Shown here in pieces: positions 1 to 6,533 of a stretch of DNA of 9,532 nt. A program made the translations under genes and the position numbers. The stretch lies in IMG/VR virus record IMGVR_UViG_2671180986_000016; one strand, written 5' to 3'. The notes beneath the pieces were generated by a model. That model searched no databases and was not told the origin of the DNA. It saw only the letters and a list, made by a program, of their open reading frames with translations. Source of the stretch: a virus. Its lineage: Duplodnaviria > Heunggongvirae > Uroviricota > Caudoviricetes. Each line of letters opens with the position of its first letter. Position 1 is the first letter of the stretch.

Positions 1-1239
1 ATGAGCAGCGCAATTCATAGACTTAGCGACACTCTTTTACGAAAATTAAGCGGATCACCAACCACAAAAAACGCCTTTTTTAATGACGGTGGCAATCTTA
101 GCGTAAGACATTCCACCAGCGGCCTGTTAACCTGGTATTTCACTTACAGGGCCGGAACTGGCAGGCAGGTATCACCGGAACGCCTGAGACTGGGCAACTA
201 TCCCGATCTGAGCCTGAAAGCAGCCAGGGAAAAAGCGGCACAGTGTCGCGCCTGGCTGGCTGAGGGGAAAAATCCGCGCTATGAGCTTAATCGTGCTGTA
301 CAGGATGCGTTAGCCCCCGTGACAGTTAAGGAAGCGCTCACTTACTGGCTTGAATCGTATGCAAAGGAAAAGCGCACTGACTACGAATCACTGAAAAGCC
401 GGATCAATAAACACATAATCAGCCAGATTGGCGCTTTGCCGTTGGAAAAATGCGAGCTACGGCACTGGTTGGCATGTTTTGACCAGATGGCAAAGCGAAG
501 CCCAGTATCTGCCGGATTTTTGCTACAGGTATGCAAACAGGCGCTTAAGTACTGCCGAAAACGACGATACGCAATCAGCAACGTTCTTGATGATATGGTT
601 GTCGGTGATGTGGGAAAAAAAGCAGAAATAAGCGAGCGCGTACTAACAAACAAGGAGCTTGGGGAATTACTCCGCGCCCTGGATGAAAAAATTTACCCAC
701 CGTACTACAGCGCCCTGATTCGCCTCCTGATTGTCTTCGGATGCCGTGCCACTGAGCTAAGACGCTCTGAGGTCCAGGAATGGGATTTTAAAGAAATGCT
801 CTGGACCGTGCCGAAAGAACACAGCAAAACGAAGGTAGCAATATTCAGGCCAATACCGGAAGCGATCTTGCCGTTCGTAACGAAGCTGGTGGAGCAGAAC
901 AGGCACACGGGATTATTGCTCGGAGAACTGAAAGGGCAATCATCCGTATCAGAGTACGGAAGAACGGCACACAGACGCATTAATCAAGCCCCCTGGACGT
1001 TGCACGACATCCGGCACACGTTTACAACGATGCTGAACGATTTAGGCGTGGATCCTCATGTAGTGGAGCAGCTAACCGCGCACCAGTTGCCAGGAGTGCA
1101 ACGAGTCTATAATCACTCCCGTTATCTCGATGCAAAACGTGACGCTCTTAATCTATGGGTTGAGCGTCTCGAGCTTCTCCAGAACAATGATGAAAAAATC
1201 GTTGTTATGACCCCGCGAATTTACTCCCAAAATTCTTGA
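1..1239 (+). CDS. int: Tyrosine-type site-specific integrase, P4-like (412 aa)
   Basis: Complete ORF from ATG at 1 to TGA at 1237-1239. C-terminal catalytic signature of tyrosine recombinases: conserved Arg context GCRATELRRSE, H-x-x-R in LHDIRHTFTTML, nucleophile Tyr region VYNHSRYLDAKR. N-terminal region resembles P4-type Int arm-binding domains. Followed by an alpA-like gene, as in P4-like islands. Confidence 0.9.
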   Translation: MSSAIHRLSDTLLRKLSGSPTTKNAFFNDGGNLSVRHSTSGLLTWYFTYRAGTGRQVSPERLRLGNYPDLSLKAAREKAAQCRAWLAEGKNPRYELNRAVQDALAPVTVKEALTYWLESYAKEKRTDYESLKSRINKHIISQIGALPLEKCELRHWLACFDQMAKRSPVSAGFLLQVCKQALKYCRKRRYAISNVLDDMVVGDVGKKAEISERVLTNKELGELLRALDEKIYPPYYSALIRLLIVFGCRATELRRSEVQEWDFKEMLWTVPKEHSKTKVAIFRPIPEAILPFVTKLVEQNRHTGLLLGELKGQSSVSEYGRTAHRRINQAPWTLHDIRHTFTTMLNDLGVDPHVVEQLTAHQLPGVQRVYNHSRYLDAKRDALNLWVERLELLQNNDEKIVVMTPRIYSQNS

Positions 1240-1648: not shown

Positions 1649-1858
1649 ATGCGTGAAATAAATGAAGATCGCGTAATCCGTGAGGATGAATGTCGTAAGT
1701 TAACTGGAGTGTGCCGCACTACACGTTACGAACTGGAGAAAAAAGGGCGCTTTCCGTCACGTCTTAATCTGGGCGGTCGTTCTGTAGGGTGGCTGCTGTC
1801 CGAGGTTATGGAATGGGTTAAAAGCCGGGATCGCATTAATTCAGGTAAGGCAGTGTAA
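1649..1858 (+). CDS. alpA: AlpA-family (prophage CP4-57-type) transcriptional regulator, 69 aa
   Basis: MREINEDRVIREDECRKLTGVCRTTRYELEKKGRFPSRLNLGGRSVGWLLSEVMEWV... matches the AlpA pattern (HTH followed by LGxRSVGW...E...EW). ATG at 1649 gives the family-typical length of about 70 aa. The ORF-track start GTG 1562 (98 aa) has its AAGAGG motif directly abutting the start codon, so it is less likely. Confidence 0.8.
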   Translation: MREINEDRVIREDECRKLTGVCRTTRYELEKKGRFPSRLNLGGRSVGWLLSEVMEWVKSRDRINSGKAV

Positions 1859-1885: not shown

Positions 1886-1905
1886 GGCGACCTGGGGCGG
1901 TCGCC
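1886..1905. terminator. GC-rich hairpin GGCGACC-TGGGGC-GGTCGCC flanked by A-tract (left) and T-run (right); probable bidirectional intrinsic terminator between convergent alpA and the leftward transcript
   Basis: Perfect 7-bp stem (1886-1892 / 1899-1905) with 6-nt loop. On the minus strand the hairpin is followed by TTTGTTTTAT (reverse complement of 1876-1885), a good U-tract. On the plus strand it is followed by AGTTTGG, a weaker one. Confidence 0.4.
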
Positions 1906-1969: not shown

Positions 1970-2146
1970 TCAGTCTGTTTCAGTGCGTTGCCATAACTGC
2001 GAAGCTCTCTCCTTTGATGAGTATTCTTTAAGGTACTTCTCAAGGGCAAAAGAACACGGCGCGAATCGTTCTGATTCATGCTCTTTCTTTCTGCGTCGTC
2101 TTTTTCGTGCAGGTGATGTTTTTTTGGTTGATTCTTCGTTGGTCAT
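1970..2146 (-). CDS. Candidate small basic ORF (58 aa, MTNEESTKKTSPARKRRRRKKEHESERFAPCSFALEKYLKEYSSKERASQLWQRTETD); speculative
   Basis: Hand translation of the minus strand: ATG at 2146, stop at 1970-1972. It is in the same frame as the upstream RHH-like gene (TAA at 2204-2206) and 19 codons after it. It ends about 65 bp upstream of the hairpin at 1886-1905. Below the ORF-track length cutoff. Weak SD (AGGCG). Lys/Arg richness could simply reflect a T-rich intergenic stretch. Confidence 0.2.
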   Translation of the reverse strand: MTNEESTKKTSPARKRRRRKKEHESERFAPCSFALEKYLKEYSSKERASQLWQRTETD

Positions 2147-2203: not shown

Positions 2204-2509
2204 TTATTCTGATTCTTTGGCCTTGCGGCGCTGGAGTTCTTCGCGTGCAACGGTGATAAGCTGCCCGATTTCCTCCGCTGCCTTGATGCCGATTTGTTCG
2301 ACATTAGCTAGGGCATCCAGTGAAGACACAAGGGGATTTTCTCCACTTCCTTCTGCCTGGCGCCTGGCGATCTCACCGCGTACAGCCGTAACTATAAAAT
2401 TCGCTTTAGTTTCCCCTGGCTGTAGGGATGCCTCAATGCCACTCACTACTTCATGTGGAAATCTGGCATTCAGTTGCTGTGACTTATTGTTAACAGAACT
2501 CCTGGACAT
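2204..2509 (-). CDS. Small regulator, probable ribbon-helix-helix (CopG/Arc-like) DNA-binding protein, 101 aa; candidate repressor of the rightward operon
   Basis: Minus-strand ORF with preferred start ATG at 2509 (reverse complement of 2507-2509), preceded by a strong SD GGAGGTG (reverse complement of 2514-2520) at 6-nt spacing. The longer track ORF (start 2656) would begin upstream of this SD. The N-terminus KSQQLNARFPHEVVSGIEASL fits the RHH beta-strand plus helix pattern (x-R-F-P-x-E). Divergent from the rightward operon across an operator-containing region. Confidence 0.55.
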   Translation of the reverse strand: MSRSSVNNKSQQLNARFPHEVVSGIEASLQPGETKANFIVTAVRGEIARRQAEGSGENPLVSSLDALANVEQIGIKAAEEIGQLITVAREELQRRKAKESE

Positions 2510-2540
2510 GTTTGCACCTCCCATTAATAACGGGATGCAG

Positions 2541-2607
2541 TGTAATACAAAAGTGAATACCAAAAAAGACTTGAAATGGTATTCACCTAAATGTAATGTG
2601 AATACCA
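2541..2607. promoter_or_regulatory. Divergent promoter/operator region: three copies of the 10-bp site GTGAATACCA (two direct, one inverted) overlapping a candidate rightward sigma70 promoter
   Basis: GTGAATACCA at 2553-2562 and 2598-2607; reverse complement TGGTATTCAC at 2577-2586. Centre-to-centre spacing is 24 and 21 bp. Both direct copies are preceded by TGTAAT (2541-2546, 2592-2597). Candidate promoter: -35 TTGAAA (2571-2576), 17-bp spacer, -10 TAATGT (2594-2599). The middle site fills the spacer and the third site overlaps -10/+1. Confidence 0.5.
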
Positions 2608-2709
2608 CAAGTGCTGATACATGCAATTCAGCAATTGAAACGACGAAGCCCCGCAAGTGTCGTTACCACTCGCAGGGCTTCTAACCAACAACGTAAACGA
2701 GGAGCCGTT

Positions 2710-2907
2710 ATGGTTGCCGTAAATCATATACCACACCTTGTACACACACAAACGGCCTTTGTGTGGCGTTTTCTGGCCCTGAGTGCCGGAGAATCTCAAA
2801 TCATCCACGTAACCGCCTGGACGGAACGCGAAGCGCGTAACCGTTGCCCGTCAGGTTGTGTTGCTGTATTCGCCGCCCGTATTCGTCAGGAGGTGTGCCA
2901 TGCCTGA
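2710..2907 (+). CDS. Small protein, 65 aa, first gene of the rightward operon; possibly Icd-like (host cell-division inhibitor) family, function uncertain
   Basis: ATG at 2710 preceded by SD GAGGAG (2699-2704) at 5-nt spacing; stop TGA at 2905-2907 overlaps the next start (ATG 2900) by 8 nt. MVAVNHIPHLVHTQTAFVWRFLALSAGESQIIHVTAWTEREARNRCPSGCVAVFAARIRQEVCHA. The family guess rests on recalled resemblance (W/F-rich N-terminus, EREARxxL, FAxR...QEV) and typical position just upstream of the primase in P4-like islands. Confidence 0.5.
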   Translation: MVAVNHIPHLVHTQTAFVWRFLALSAGESQIIHVTAWTEREARNRCPSGCVAVFAARIRQEVCHA

Positions 2908-3140
2908 CATGACCAATTACCAGTACCTGATTAATCCGCATTTTAACTGTGAGCATGATATTGCTAAAAAGGTTTATTCCGCTGCGGATGGGGCTACTGA
3001 CAATATATCAATGGCTGTTGCGTCAATTGGTAGCCTGATGTGGCATGCGTCAGAAAATGAGGAATATGACGAAAAGGCTATGCGCATTGACATGGGTAAT
3101 ATTGGCTTGTTACTGGCAATGCTTGGGCAGTTTGATATTT
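2900..3140 (+). CDS. Unknown protein, N-terminal 80 aa visible, 3' end hidden in masked block 3141-4461
   Basis: ATG at 2900 (alternative ATG 2909) with strong SD AGGAGG (2888-2893) at 6-nt spacing. MPDMTNYQYLINPHFNCEHDIAKKVYSAADGATDNISMAVASIGSLMWHASENEEYDEKAMRIDMGNIGLLLAMLGQFDI... Its reading frame differs from that of the primase/helicase segment after the mask, so it is probably a separate gene unless the mask hides a frameshift. Confidence 0.45.
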
Positions 3141-5876
3141 NNNNNNNNNNNNNNNNNNNNNNNNNNNNNNNNNNNNNNNNNNNNNNNNNNNNNNNNNNNN
3201 NNNNNNNNNNNNNNNNNNNNNNNNNNNNNNNNNNNNNNNNNNNNNNNNNNNNNNNNNNNNNNNNNNNNNNNNNNNNNNNNNNNNNNNNNNNNNNNNNNNN
3301 NNNNNNNNNNNNNNNNNNNNNNNNNNNNNNNNNNNNNNNNNNNNNNNNNNNNNNNNNNNNNNNNNNNNNNNNNNNNNNNNNNNNNNNNNNNNNNNNNNNN
3401 NNNNNNNNNNNNNNNNNNNNNNNNNNNNNNNNNNNNNNNNNNNNNNNNNNNNNNNNNNNNNNNNNNNNNNNNNNNNNNNNNNNNNNNNNNNNNNNNNNNN
3501 NNNNNNNNNNNNNNNNNNNNNNNNNNNNNNNNNNNNNNNNNNNNNNNNNNNNNNNNNNNNNNNNNNNNNNNNNNNNNNNNNNNNNNNNNNNNNNNNNNNN
3601 NNNNNNNNNNNNNNNNNNNNNNNNNNNNNNNNNNNNNNNNNNNNNNNNNNNNNNNNNNNNNNNNNNNNNNNNNNNNNNNNNNNNNNNNNNNNNNNNNNNN
3701 NNNNNNNNNNNNNNNNNNNNNNNNNNNNNNNNNNNNNNNNNNNNNNNNNNNNNNNNNNNNNNNNNNNNNNNNNNNNNNNNNNNNNNNNNNNNNNNNNNNN
3801 NNNNNNNNNNNNNNNNNNNNNNNNNNNNNNNNNNNNNNNNNNNNNNNNNNNNNNNNNNNNNNNNNNNNNNNNNNNNNNNNNNNNNNNNNNNNNNNNNNNN
3901 NNNNNNNNNNNNNNNNNNNNNNNNNNNNNNNNNNNNNNNNNNNNNNNNNNNNNNNNNNNNNNNNNNNNNNNNNNNNNNNNNNNNNNNNNNNNNNNNNNNN
4001 NNNNNNNNNNNNNNNNNNNNNNNNNNNNNNNNNNNNNNNNNNNNNNNNNNNNNNNNNNNNNNNNNNNNNNNNNNNNNNNNNNNNNNNNNNNNNNNNNNNN
4101 NNNNNNNNNNNNNNNNNNNNNNNNNNNNNNNNNNNNNNNNNNNNNNNNNNNNNNNNNNNNNNNNNNNNNNNNNNNNNNNNNNNNNNNNNNNNNNNNNNNN
4201 NNNNNNNNNNNNNNNNNNNNNNNNNNNNNNNNNNNNNNNNNNNNNNNNNNNNNNNNNNNNNNNNNNNNNNNNNNNNNNNNNNNNNNNNNNNNNNNNNNNN
4301 NNNNNNNNNNNNNNNNNNNNNNNNNNNNNNNNNNNNNNNNNNNNNNNNNNNNNNNNNNNNNNNNNNNNNNNNNNNNNNNNNNNNNNNNNNNNNNNNNNNN
4401 NNNNNNNNNNNNNNNNNNNNNNNNNNNNNNNNNNNNNNNNNNNNNNNNNNNNNNNNNNNNNGCTATTCGCAGAACGCCATTAAATCGGCGGTCGATACCA
4501 TGAAGTTAAGTTTGCCTGTAATGGGGAATACAGCCCGTAACCTGATTGGATTCAGTAACGGGGTATTTGATACCAGAACAGGTAATTTTCGGGAGCATAA
4601 CAAAAACGACTGGTTGTTAATTGCCAGTGAATTACCTTTCAGCCCACCAGCAGAGGGGGAAACGCTGGCAACACATGCGCCGAATTTCTGGAAGTGGTTA
4701 CGCCGTTCGGTGGCTGAGAATGACCGCAAGGCGGATCGCGTACTGACTGTATTATTCATGGTGCTGGCGAACCGGTACGACTGGCAGTTATTCATTGAGG
4801 TAACAGGTCCAGGGGGAAGTGGTAAAAGCGTGATGGCGGAGATTTGCACCATGCTGGCGGGTAAGGCCAACACAGTATCGGCAAGCATGAAGGCGCTGGA
4901 AGATGCAAGGGAACGCGCGTTAGTGGTTGGCTTTTCGCTGATTATCATGCCGGATATGACCCGCTACGCTGGTGATGGGGCAGGGATTAAGGCCATTACA
5001 GGCGGTGACAAGGTGGCAATTGACCCGAAACACAAAGCCCCCTACTCAACGCGTATTCCGGCAGTAGTGCTGGCGGTTAACAATAACGCCATGTCATTCA
5101 GTGACCGCAGCGGGGGGATCTCACGTCGTCGGGTGATATTCAATTTTTCGGAAGTTGTACCGGAGAACGAACGCGACCCCATGCTGGCAGAAAAAATAGA
5201 AGGAGAGCTGGCGGTTGTGATTCGCCACCTGCTTACTCGTTTTTCTGACCAGGACGAAGCTAAACGCCTGCTGTATGAGCAGCAGAAATCAGAAGAAGCT
5301 CTGGTGATAAAACGCGAGGGCGATTCGCTGGTGGACTTCTGCGGCTATCTCATGTCGTCGGTAATGTGTGATGGTCTGTTAGTGGGTAATGCCGAAATTA
5401 TTCCGTTCAGTCCGCGCAGGTATCTTTATCACGCCTATCTGGCATATATGAGGGCACACGGATTCGGTAAACCTGTAACACTGACGCGCTTCGGTAAAGA
5501 TATGCCGGGGGCAATGGCGGAATATGGCAGGGAGTATATGAAACGGAAAACGAAGCACGGTTTGCGTTCAAANNNNNNNNNNNNNNNNNNNNNNNNNNNN
5601 NNNNNNNNNNNNNNNNNNNNNNNNNNNNNNNNNNNNNNNNNNNNNNNNNNNNNNNNNNNNNNNNNNNNNNNNNNNNNNNNNNNNNNNNNNNNNNNNNNNN
5701 NNNNNNNNNNNNNNNNNNNNNNNNNNNNNNNNNNNNNNNNNNNNNNNNNNNNNNNNNNNNNNNNNNNNNNNNNNNNNNNNNNNNNNNNNNNNNNNNNNNN
5801 NNNNNNNNNNNNNNNNNNNNNNNNNNNNNNNNNNNNNNNNNNNNNNNNNNNNNNNNNNNNNNNNNNNNNNNGGTGA
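3141..5876 (+). CDS. P4 alpha-type primase / SF3 (D5-like) replicative helicase; both ends lie in masked sequence, visible part is 4462-5572 (C-terminal helicase region)
   Basis: Visible 370 aa carry Walker A GPGGSGKS, Walker B-like hydrophobic strand ending in D (LIIMPD), and the D5_N / P4-family primase C-terminal domain pattern (NLIGFSNGVFDTRTG..., VVLAVNNNAMSF). The start is somewhere in mask 3141-4461 and the true stop is probably inside mask 5573-5871; the coordinates given are only the envelope of the open frame (first visible in-frame stop TGA 5874-5876). Confidence 0.75.
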   Translation, partial: XXXXXXXXXXXXXXXXXXXXXXXXXXXXXXXXXXXXXXXXXXXXXXXXXXXXXXXXXXXXXXXXXXXXXXXXXXXXXXXXXXXXXXXXXXXXXXXXXXXXXXXXXXXXXXXXXXXXXXXXXXXXXXXXXXXXXXXXXXXXXXXXXXXXXXXXXXXXXXXXXXXXXXXXXXXXXXXXXXXXXXXXXXXXXXXXXXXXXXXXXXXXXXXXXXXXXXXXXXXXXXXXXXXXXXXXXXXXXXXXXXXXXXXXXXXXXXXXXXXXXXXXXXXXXXXXXXXXXXXXXXXXXXXXXXXXXXXXXXXXXXXXXXXXXXXXXXXXXXXXXXXXXXXXXXXXXXXXXXXXXXXXXXXXXXXXXXXXXXXXXXXXXXXXXXXXXXXXXXXXXXXXXXXXXXXXXXXXXXXXXXXXXXXXXXXXXXXXXXXXXXXXXXXXXXXXXXXXXXXXXYSQNAIKSAVDTMKLSLPVMGNTARNLIGFSNGVFDTRTGNFREHNKNDWLLIASELPFSPPAEGETLATHAPNFWKWLRRSVAENDRKADRVLTVLFMVLANRYDWQLFIEVTGPGGSGKSVMAEICTMLAGKANTVSASMKALEDARERALVVGFSLIIMPDMTRYAGDGAGIKAITGGDKVAIDPKHKAPYSTRIPAVVLAVNNNAMSFSDRSGGISRRRVIFNFSEVVPENERDPMLAEKIEGELAVVIRHLLTRFSDQDEAKRLLYEQQKSEEALVIKREGDSLVDFCGYLMSSVMCDGLLVGNAEIIPFSPRRYLYHAYLAYMRAHGFGKPVTLTRFGKDMPGAMAEYGREYMKRKTKHGLRSXXXXXXXXXXXXXXXXXXXXXXXXXXXXXXXXXXXXXXXXXXXXXXXXXXXXXXXXXXXXXXXXXXXXXXXXXXXXXXXXXXXXXXXXXXXXXXXXXXXXX

Positions 5877-5964
5877 ACAGTTGGTGAATAGTTTTTGTGA
5901 AACTGTTAACCCATTAACATCATGAATAAAAAGGGAAAATTGCAAAAGGTGAACAGGTGAAGGG
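5872..5964. repeat. Iteron cluster of P4 alpha type-I sites (TGTTCACC, seen here as its reverse complement GGTGAACA); probable ori/crr-like replication region
   Basis: GGTGAACAG at 5872-5880 and 5948-5956 (perfect). Degenerate copies GGTGAATAG at 5883-5891 and GTGAAGGG at 5957-5964. Flanking repeats AAAATTGCAAAA (5936-5947) and AAAATGCAAAA (5967-5977). Located immediately downstream of the primase/helicase gene; more copies may lie in the adjacent mask. Confidence 0.55.
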
Positions 5965-6253: not shown

Positions 6254-6533
6254 CAGCACAGATAGCGGCTTACGGGCGGCTGGTGGCTGACCCGCAGTTA
6301 AAGACCACCAGCAAGGGTACGCAAATGACGATGGCGAGTATGGCGGTTCCCCTGCCGTGCAGCCAGGCAGATGACGGAACGGCGACGATATGGTTATCCG
6401 TCCTGGCGTTTGGCAGACAGGCTGACGCACTGGCAAAGCACCAGAAAGGCGAGCTGGTGAGCGTGGCGGGTAACATGCAGGTAAGCCAGTGGACAGGCCA
6501 GAACGGAGAAACGCGGCAGGGCTGGCAGGTTAT
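6250..6533 (+). CDS. Single-stranded DNA-binding protein-like OB-fold protein; 3' end in masked block 6534-7327
   Basis: ATG at 6250 with SD GGAGA (6236-6240). The visible 95 aa align by eye to the bacterial SSB OB fold: TIWLSVLAFGRQADALAKHQKGELVSVAGNMQVSQWTGQNGETRQGWQV compares with E. coli SSB [52 protein letters not shown]. Confidence 0.7.

Follow-up and report, generated by a model that had tools for sequence, protein, structure and literature searches.

What keeps the replication and packaging genes of a Gram-negative phage-inducible chromosomal island (PICI) silent while the element resides in its host chromosome is the question raised by a 9,532-nucleotide stretch of viral DNA (Caudoviricetes; IMG/VR record IMGVR_UViG_2671180986_000016), which was analysed here over its whole length and is referred to as the window. 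Gram-negative PICIs are described as AlpA-controlled, a premise on which a first-pass annotation of this DNA correctly relied, and their discoverers left the question of a global repressor open (PMC6092414). The window carries int, alpA, primase, ssb and capsid-type genes in the order characteristic of Gram-negative PICIs of the EcCICFT073 type, at about 10 kb and in a chromosomal setting, and the first-pass annotation singled out a small minus-strand gene at 2204-2509, encoding a protein of 101 aa, as a candidate master repressor. Based on the sequences of the protein and of its neighbouring sites, we consider it reasonably probable that this is a ribbon-helix-helix (RHH) repressor which forms, with operators of its own, a promoter-occluding and autoregulated immunity module of EcCICFT073-type islands. 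Repression of the rightward promoter (P_R) through the predicted sites is likely, and a role as the principal immunity switch of the island is doubtful.

The gene (ATG at 2509, stop TAA at 2204-2206) was confirmed as a real coding gene. Residues 9-50 of its product matched the whole 42-position NCBIfam model NF041551 (YlcI_YnfO_N) with 60.3 bits at a cut-off of 30, the YlcI/YnfO name is also assigned to homologues by RefSeq, and phrog_6522, a family with no function attached, was matched over its full length (E 1.7e-46). Across 36 DNA alleles, the differences in the conserved C-terminal half numbered 689, 58 and 210 at codon positions 3, 2 and 1 of the minus-strand frame, respectively. A Shine-Dalgarno sequence (GGGAGGTG, 2516-2523, minus strand, read from sequence) ends 6 nt before the ATG, so that the small minus-strand gene with a strong ribosome-binding site that had been proposed is well founded. 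A longer reading of 150 aa initiated at TTG was dropped because the homologues begin at the same methionine as the 101-aa form.

The word-indexed search returned 126 homologues, mostly of about 101 aa, from Escherichia, Yersinia, Klebsiella, Salmonella, Enterobacter, Citrobacter, Serratia and Cronobacter, and when 1.84 billion cluster representatives were searched exhaustively with a profile, no more than 73 clusters emerged, about half of them short forms of 55-65 aa ending after the second helix; the YlcI/YnfO-type family thus appears to be small and largely enterobacterial. The long (101 aa) and short (59-65 aa) forms end alike, with the tail RRKAKE(S/Q)E (window 2204-2240), and judging from the alignment the short forms seem to have lost an internal part of the long helix, in frame and between two RRQ/RRK repeats. 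No match was obtained when long-form and short-form queries were run by tblastn against 50,697 phage records, and at least 591 of 5,426 complete E. coli genomes matched a megablast query made of the neighbouring gene orf58 and the C-terminal half of the gene, all of them in the chromosome and with up to five places per genome.

The structure of the 101-aa protein was modelled by AlphaFold2 (AF2). With 47 sequences including distant short forms, the mean predicted local distance difference test score (pLDDT) was 86.8, and 93-97 across residues 11-50, in comparison to 74 for a first model from 32 close homologues, which had an ill-defined N-terminus and whose Foldseek search gave no useful match. 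The model is extended over residues 1-18, followed by helices at 19-28 and 35-54 and by one long helix at 59-100; the N-terminal arm and strand (1-18) together with the first two helices make up a strand-helix-helix domain of about 45 residues, as is found in the RHH superfamily, and the N-terminal domain as predicted has an RHH fold. As is usual in RHH proteins, the turn between the helices has the pattern G-E-T/S. In an alignment with Arc, the strand KSQQLNARFPHEV falls on KMPQFNLRWPREV in the register Q.N.R[FW]P.EV, which places Q12, N14 and R16 opposite Q9, N11 and R13 of Arc, the base-contacting residues of that repressor, and a pairwise BLASTP comparison with Arc covered 15 strand residues at 47% identity (E 4e-4 for that single comparison).

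Structure and family searches pointed in the same direction. Foldseek returned five hits, all weak, and from their descriptions we take all five to be RHH antitoxins or regulators; the names among the fold matches were TacA1, Rv0298, StnY, NikR, AmrZ, omega, ORF56, SvtR, ParD and CdbA, interleaved with coiled coils that matched the C-terminal helix. Among the 47 family members the Pfam hits, all sub-threshold, were to PSK_trans_fac (12), CB_ParB_C (3), RHH_1 (1) and TacA1 (1), all of them RHH families. Sequence searches of the PDB with the profile and with the N-terminal domain alone gave no significant hit, the best one for the profile (E about 1) being 3no7, presumably the RHH protein ParB of pCXC100. 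In general, the analysis suggests that the 101-aa protein is very probably an RHH DNA-binding protein.

The candidate operators lie in the 200-bp intergenic region between this gene and the rightward operon. The motif GTGAATACCA occurs in exactly three exact copies in the whole 9.5-kb window, all of them inside a 55-bp stretch of this region; when the 200-bp region was shuffled 20,000 times, a threefold 8-mer of any sequence arose in just 0.6% of the shuffles. One exact copy (O2, 2553-2562, plus strand) lies in the spacer and -35 region of the leftward promoter. The second (O3, 2577-2586, minus strand) lies in the 17-nt spacer of P_R, of which it occupies the first 10 nt; the putative -35 of this promoter (TTGAAA, 2571-2576, plus strand) was read from sequence, and its putative -10 (TAATGT, 2594-2599, plus strand) from sequence and from positional homology with other types. 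The third (O4, 2598-2607, plus strand) shares 2 nt with the end of the -10 of P_R and extends over the position where transcription from this promoter should start. A fourth, degenerate copy (O1, CTGCATCCCG, 2531-2540, minus strand, six of ten positions in common with GTGAATACCA) was placed by homology on the start-site side of the leftward promoter, where the related alleles L028 and L010 (loci are given by L numbers where they need to be told apart) hold a good copy of the motif. It overlaps the putative -10 of this presumably autoregulated promoter (TACACT, 2539-2544, minus strand), which was assigned from the alignment of the operator regions, is accompanied by a poor -35, and reads TATACT, TATAAT, TATATT or TATAGT at the same place in other types. 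The four putative sites are spaced 21-24 bp apart in alternating orientation and cover two back-to-back promoters.

The same arrangement was seen in the model island EcCICFT073, where the promoter scan called the homologous promoter (TTGACG-18-TATAGT) and the sequence GTGGGCCACACC is present twice on it, at the O3 and O4 positions. When further operator copies were looked for near alpA, near int and elsewhere in the window, only chance-level hits with two mismatches were found, and there is therefore no evidence that the 101-aa protein also controls alpA.

To see how the sites relate to the protein, we compared 91 loci, made up of 8 from reference genomes (Enterobacter, Photorhabdus, Xenorhabdus, Phytobacter and a record labelled Martelella), 80 from IMG/VR, the E. 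coli relatives L001 and L002 and the window itself, with EcCICFT073 analysed alongside. All loci showed the same architecture, with a repeated motif of 9-10 bp at the same four positions on back-to-back promoters, and the motif varied with the protein allele: at least ten strand alleles were found, each with its own motif. The allele QQ(L/I)NARF goes with (G/C)TGAAT(A/C)NCA, KQISIRI with TGAATCACA, QSLTARI with GTCTTACAC, QMTTIRV with GATATACAC, QLTTVRV with GAAACACAC, QKLQARA with TGGAATCCA, QALKARV (EcCICFT073) with GTGGGCCACAC and AKKNIRF (the short form of L001) with TGTGCGCACA; beyond these eight, two more strand alleles were seen.

The most informative comparison is that of types B, C and D, which are identical at residues 23-55 and differ only at residues 2-22, and whose motifs are TGAATCACA, GTCTTACAC and GATATACAC, respectively; against the C-terminal half of the window's protein they show 85-93% identity. 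This natural swap maps the specificity to the arm and strand, as expected of an RHH protein. In addition, type A operators, identical or within a few bases of each other, coexist with AlpA proteins of 27-100%, integrases of 22-100% and Icd-like proteins of 51-100% identity and with different primases, and AlpA of 97-100% identity was found beside four different motif types. The motif type thus follows residues 2-22 of the 101-aa protein and not AlpA, integrase, the Icd-like protein or primase. Within a type, the conservation of the sites was 85% in comparison to 74% between the sites (Fisher p = 0.002, with compared pairs that are non-independent). The operator-bearing region of the first-pass annotation thereby gained substance, with operators on the rightward promoter that, as far as the alleles tell, co-vary with the DNA-reading segment of the protein.

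The gene, its predicted fold, the sites, their placement on promoter-like hexamers and their allele-specific covariation were directly observed or computed, and from these we infer a course of binding, repression, oligomerisation and AlpA read-through as follows. Dimers would recognise the site of 9-10 bp with the beta-strand and the N-terminal arm that precedes it (residues about 2-22), and would probably pair through the long C-terminal helix across sites two helical turns apart; this helix, which is conserved across the specificity types, is a likely oligomerisation surface and could alternatively serve as a docking surface for an inducer. P_R, with O3 in its spacer and O4 at its -10 and start, would drive the icd-like gene, DUF4222, primase, ssb and the capsid genes, and O2 together with the weak O1 would be placed correspondingly on the leftward promoter of the gene itself. 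When bound, the sites would exclude RNA polymerase, so that the replication and packaging operon stays silent while the element is integrated and the repressor limits its own synthesis.

Release from such repression would likely be tied to AlpA. In EcCICFT073, helper phages switch on alpA, AlpA activates its own expression and that of reporters downstream of alpA, which require AlpA, over-expressed AlpA alone induces excision and replication, and deletion of alpA abolishes transfer (PMC6092414). Transcription of alpA induced by a helper would head rightward toward the repressor gene, and an AlpA-dependent read-through, antisense to this gene, could both hinder repressor synthesis and transcribe the operon without P_R. 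This is proposed because alpA converges on the repressor cassette and because the terminator-like hairpin between them (1886-1905, minus strand, from a hairpin scan), which would end the leftward transcript, has its T-run in the leftward direction only, with no T-run on the plus strand after alpA.

A number of points weigh against the protein being such a repressor. The RHH fold, for which the first-pass annotation had suggested a check by AlphaFold, was borne out by the strand-helix-helix domain of the AF2 model, but no curated RHH family of Pfam reached its threshold for the 101-aa protein (best PSK_trans_fac, 16.4 bits with a cut-off of 28.3), and hhalign gave a probability of 7% for Arc and 0.9% for Mnt, values too weak for homology. 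The model is that of a single chain in which the strand of residues 1-18 is unpaired, and the RHH dimer is therefore assumed. The -10 of P_R matches the consensus at three of six positions (A2 and T6 are present), and the promoter scan called neither the leftward nor the rightward promoter in the window. The operators adjoin the first 22 codons of the gene, so that linkage could partly account for their co-inheritance. Moreover, AlpA alone induces EcCICFT073, in which the short form is present, and repression can thus be overridden without a phage anti-repressor and would be no insurmountable lock. Finally, C4 and isrK RNAs are encoded in the same operon of L001 and L030, so that immunity may have several layers, with this protein as one of them.

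The last two of these points also bear on the first alternative, in which the protein is a local regulator or accessory layer that keeps the potentially toxic icd-like gene and its neighbours off and autoregulates, while the island is turned on or off solely by AlpA, joined in some relatives by a C4-type RNA. The induction of EcCICFT073 by AlpA over-expression alone and the loss of transfer upon alpA deletion (PMC6092414) agree with it, as do the Icd-like nature of the first controlled gene and the RNAs of L001 (10539-10743, plus strand) and L030 (2496-2681, minus strand), where the C4 antisense RNA, its a1b1 targets (c4-a1b1) and isrK were found with Rfam gathering scores just after icd-like and constitute a P1/P4-type RNA immunity layer additional to the RHH gene. 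We nevertheless hold this alternative to be unlikely: the controlled promoter is the sole promoter-like site upstream of the icd-like/primase block in the window and in EcCICFT073, no C4 RNA was found in the window by Rfam, and the existence of at least ten specificity types suggests a selection for heteroimmunity, typical of a principal immunity repressor. Immunity by RNA only was rejected for the window: Rfam was searched with the whole window and then, under relaxed filters, with the intergenic region, and apart from miRNA-like hits attributable to chance neither C4 nor isrK nor any other real family came up.

A second alternative is that the motifs are bound by another factor, such as AlpA, the Icd-like protein or a host protein, and that the YlcI-like protein is otherwise engaged, for example in a packaging-related function, as the K-12 gene ylcI adjoins the terminase gene nohD. 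The divergence of K-12 YlcI from nohD across an intergenic region without a comparable site array would fit this explanation, and so would the label 'transcriptional repressor' carried by the PHROG families that match the Icd-like open reading frame (ORF). It is improbable, however, given the one-to-one relation of the motif type with residues 2-22 and the predicted DNA-binding fold of the protein; because the motif type is independent of their alleles, AlpA, the Icd-like protein and Int are not the readers of the sites.

A type II toxin-antitoxin pair, with the protein as its RHH antitoxin, orf58 encoding the toxin and the repeats as the autoregulatory operator of the pair, is very improbable. 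The gene order, with the RHH gene followed by a small gene, and a C-terminal helix that could bind a partner are in keeping with such a pair, but orf58 encodes only 58 aa of highly basic sequence with no toxin-family match in Pfam or PADLOC, is separated from the RHH gene by a gap of 57 nt and is not detectable in many loci that keep the RHH gene, and the sites are not confined to the gene's own promoter, two of them being on the divergent one of the replication operon. A ParG/omega-like centromere-binding protein using iterated sites for partition of the excised element is hardly credible, as the short non-palindromic alternating sites that generally resemble omega and ParG arrays coincide with promoter hexamers, the weak CB_ParB_C Pfam hits are joined by no ParA-type ATPase gene, either in the annotation of related islands or in those parts of the window that can be read, and the element resides integrated in the chromosome. 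Both readings were rejected on these grounds.

The window as a whole was annotated from its ORF list together with Pfam and NCBIfam, which gave the order int, alpA, orf58 (minus strand), the YlcI/YnfO-type gene (minus strand), icd-like, a small ORF, primase, ssb, a ClpP-type prohead protease and the major capsid protein. Runs of N (approximately 3140-4480, 5560-5880, 6530-7330, 7930-8270 and 8360-8860) cover much of the N-terminus of the primase and of ssb, protease and capsid; a protease-capsid fusion occurs in E. coli relatives, and the N-masked stretches of the window cover the corresponding region. The int gene (1-1239, plus strand) and alpA (1649-1858, plus strand; Pfam Phage_AlpA, 59.9 bits) are convergent with the ylcI-like gene. 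The first gene of the controlled rightward operon (2710-2907, plus strand) encodes an Icd-like protein of 65 aa (NF033153, 63.8 bits at a cut-off of 25), a name also given by RefSeq in L001, L002 and L092, and the divergence of the ylcI-like gene from the replication and packaging operon, as first described for the window, recurs in the gene order of these three loci. In L001 and L002 the island is inserted between cspD/yljB and clpS, with the gene order of the window. EcCICFT073 has the same layout, namely int, alpA, a Bro-like remnant, an orf58 homologue (C_RS30800) and a 59-aa YlcI/YnfO protein on the minus strand (C_RS30120), followed rightward by Icd-like, DUF4222, primase, ssb, PerC, capsid and decoration protein. 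PADLOC gave no defence-system match for the 101-aa gene or its neighbours.

The gene does not stand directly after alpA, as had been stated, since orf58 (1970-2146, minus strand) and the leftward terminator-like hairpin (1905-1886) lie between. The product of orf58 is a conserved and very basic protein of 58 aa (KRRRRKK) that matches phrog_21027 (E 7.8e-13) and is annotated in L002 and EcCICFT073; orf58 follows the RHH gene after 57 nt, precedes the hairpin and is probably co-transcribed with the ylcI-like gene. A plus-strand frame of 271 aa (1869-2684) runs antisense over orf58 and the RHH gene and is best read as a shadow ORF, and in EcCICFT073 an equivalent long plus-strand frame begins with the Bro-like remnant. 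Such shadow ORFs may explain why the small leftward genes are missing from earlier maps. The RefSeq locus tags C_RS30120 and C_RS30800 are late-numbered, and the late number of C_RS30120 suggests that this gene was added to the annotation later.

Several RNA elements were observed in the rightward operon and around alpA. The leader of the rightward transcript (2645-2715) contains a GC-rich hairpin (2645-2681, plus strand), which is an inverted repeat. After it come the motif CUAACCA, which hardly varies among the loci (a few have CUGACCA or CUUACCA), and another small hairpin at the icd-like Shine-Dalgarno sequence. Seven of ten predicted pairs carry compensatory changes across 20 loci, the fold has a z-score of -3.2, and Rfam gave no matching family; this structure could be an attenuator, a processing site or a target of an antisense RNA. 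Inside the first 20 icd-like codons there is a terminator-like hairpin with a T-run (CACACAAACGGCCTTTGTGTG GCGTTTTCTG, window 2745-2765, plus strand), which is kept in the loci that have the window's icd allele and absent from the allele of EcCICFT073, and which could be an attenuation point or a mere by-product of coding. The Rfam int-alpA RNA motif (RF02996) was detected in L005 (7326-7394), L032 (6090-6157) and L041 (6141-6208), and not in the window.

If the 101-aa protein is an immunity repressor, it would explain how the strong promoter of the replication operon is silenced, give a handle on the induction pathway of Gram-negative PICIs and predict heteroimmune classes of islands. It would also provide a first function for the YlcI/YnfO (DUF3950) family, for which no published function was found in the open-access literature. 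We further put forward, tentatively, that the immunity repressors so far missing from EcCICFT073-type PICIs are RHH proteins of the YlcI/YnfO type, which would keep the replication operon off, that their ten or more operator types correspond to heteroimmunity groups among co-resident islands, and that helpers throw the switch at this point, through AlpA-driven convergent transcription across the repressor gene or through a phage anti-repressor acting on the conserved C-terminal helix. The module is predicted to be a natural set of orthogonal small repressor/operator pairs differing in only about 20 residues, and the model island EcCICFT073 itself has the gene (C_RS30120), overlain by a long shadow ORF in antisense. 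Between alpA and the primase, a survey of Gram-negative PICIs places Bro-network proteins and immunity RNAs, with no mention of the YlcI/YnfO family (PMC10111431). No connection of YlcI, YnfO, DUF3950 or an RHH protein with the regulation of PICIs was found in the open-access literature, although subscription journals may differ; the role assignment appears to be new for Gram-negative PICIs and for the YlcI/YnfO family, with a mechanism of a known kind.

Among known systems, Stl of the Staphylococcus aureus pathogenicity islands (SaPIs), whose Stl/Str arrangement the first-pass annotation was reminded of, and the PICI repressor Rpr share with the present module the setting in a phage-inducible island, the divergence from a replication and packaging operon, the many alleles and the proposed role of keeping the island silent. 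We know of no anti-repressor for the Gram-negative model island. The 101-aa protein is nevertheless unrelated to Stl in sequence and size, with no helix-turn-helix or other family shared with Stl found in Pfam, and the layout is not Stl-like because int and alpA point toward the gene, whereas stl is co-directional with int (PMC6092414); in addition, the Gram-negative model island is induced through AlpA (PMC6092414). The earlier interpretation was accordingly supported in its RHH fold, its operators and its divergent control, with the analogy to Stl being a loose one.

The K-12 proteins YlcI and YnfO (cryptic prophages, DUF3950) belong to the same NCBIfam family as the 101-aa protein, and the short forms of L001 and EcCICFT073 occupy the same island position as the long form of the window. 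K-12 ylcI differs in lying beside nohD without a comparable operator array: in the DLP12 locus (L093, 6252-6834), ylcI (b4589) is divergent from nohD, a terminase small-subunit homologue, across 388 bp that include the cos area and no array, so that prophage members of the family may have a different target. With omega of pSM19035, CopG and ParG-type proteins the module would share the predicted RHH fold, short-site arrays, direct or inverted, on promoters, and autoregulation, and AATCACA, the motif of type B, is similar to WATCACW, the heptad of omega; those proteins, however, are regulators of plasmid copy number or partition, in comparison to an integrated phage satellite's protein with a distinct C-terminal helix.

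Closer likenesses were found in two phage immunity regions. In the immI region of P1 and P7, which consists of a repressed promoter, C4 RNA, icd and ant, the first controlled gene is Icd-like as it is here, the C4, c4-a1b1 and isrK RNAs of L001 and L030 stand at the place matching those of immI and P4, and the immunity region of P4, with its CI RNA, has, as the window does, an AlpA/Vis-type gene upstream (PMC10111431). The window differs from these systems in having no C4-type RNA according to Rfam, in encoding an RHH protein beside the promoter in place of a distant C1-type repressor, and in that a leftward gene cassette separates alpA from the operon. Mnt of P22 (sequence checked against PDB 1MNT and 1QEY) resembles the proposed repressor in being small and in combining an RHH domain at the N-terminus with a helical segment for oligomerisation at the C-terminus, which in Mnt is a tetramerisation helix, and mnt is likewise divergent from the operon that it silences (P_ant-arc-ant), with operators overlapping both promoters; the strand register Q/H-x-N-x-R-x-P-x-E-V is shared with both Arc and Mnt. 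The differences from Mnt are that homology is not demonstrated at hhalign probabilities of 0.9-7%, that Mnt has one symmetric operator in comparison to four spaced and mostly non-palindromic sites here, and that the operon comprises the Icd-like, primase and capsid genes of a satellite in place of the antirepressor of P22 immI. By analogy, the closest functional counterparts of the module would thus be P22 Mnt and the P1 immI region rather than SaPI Stl.

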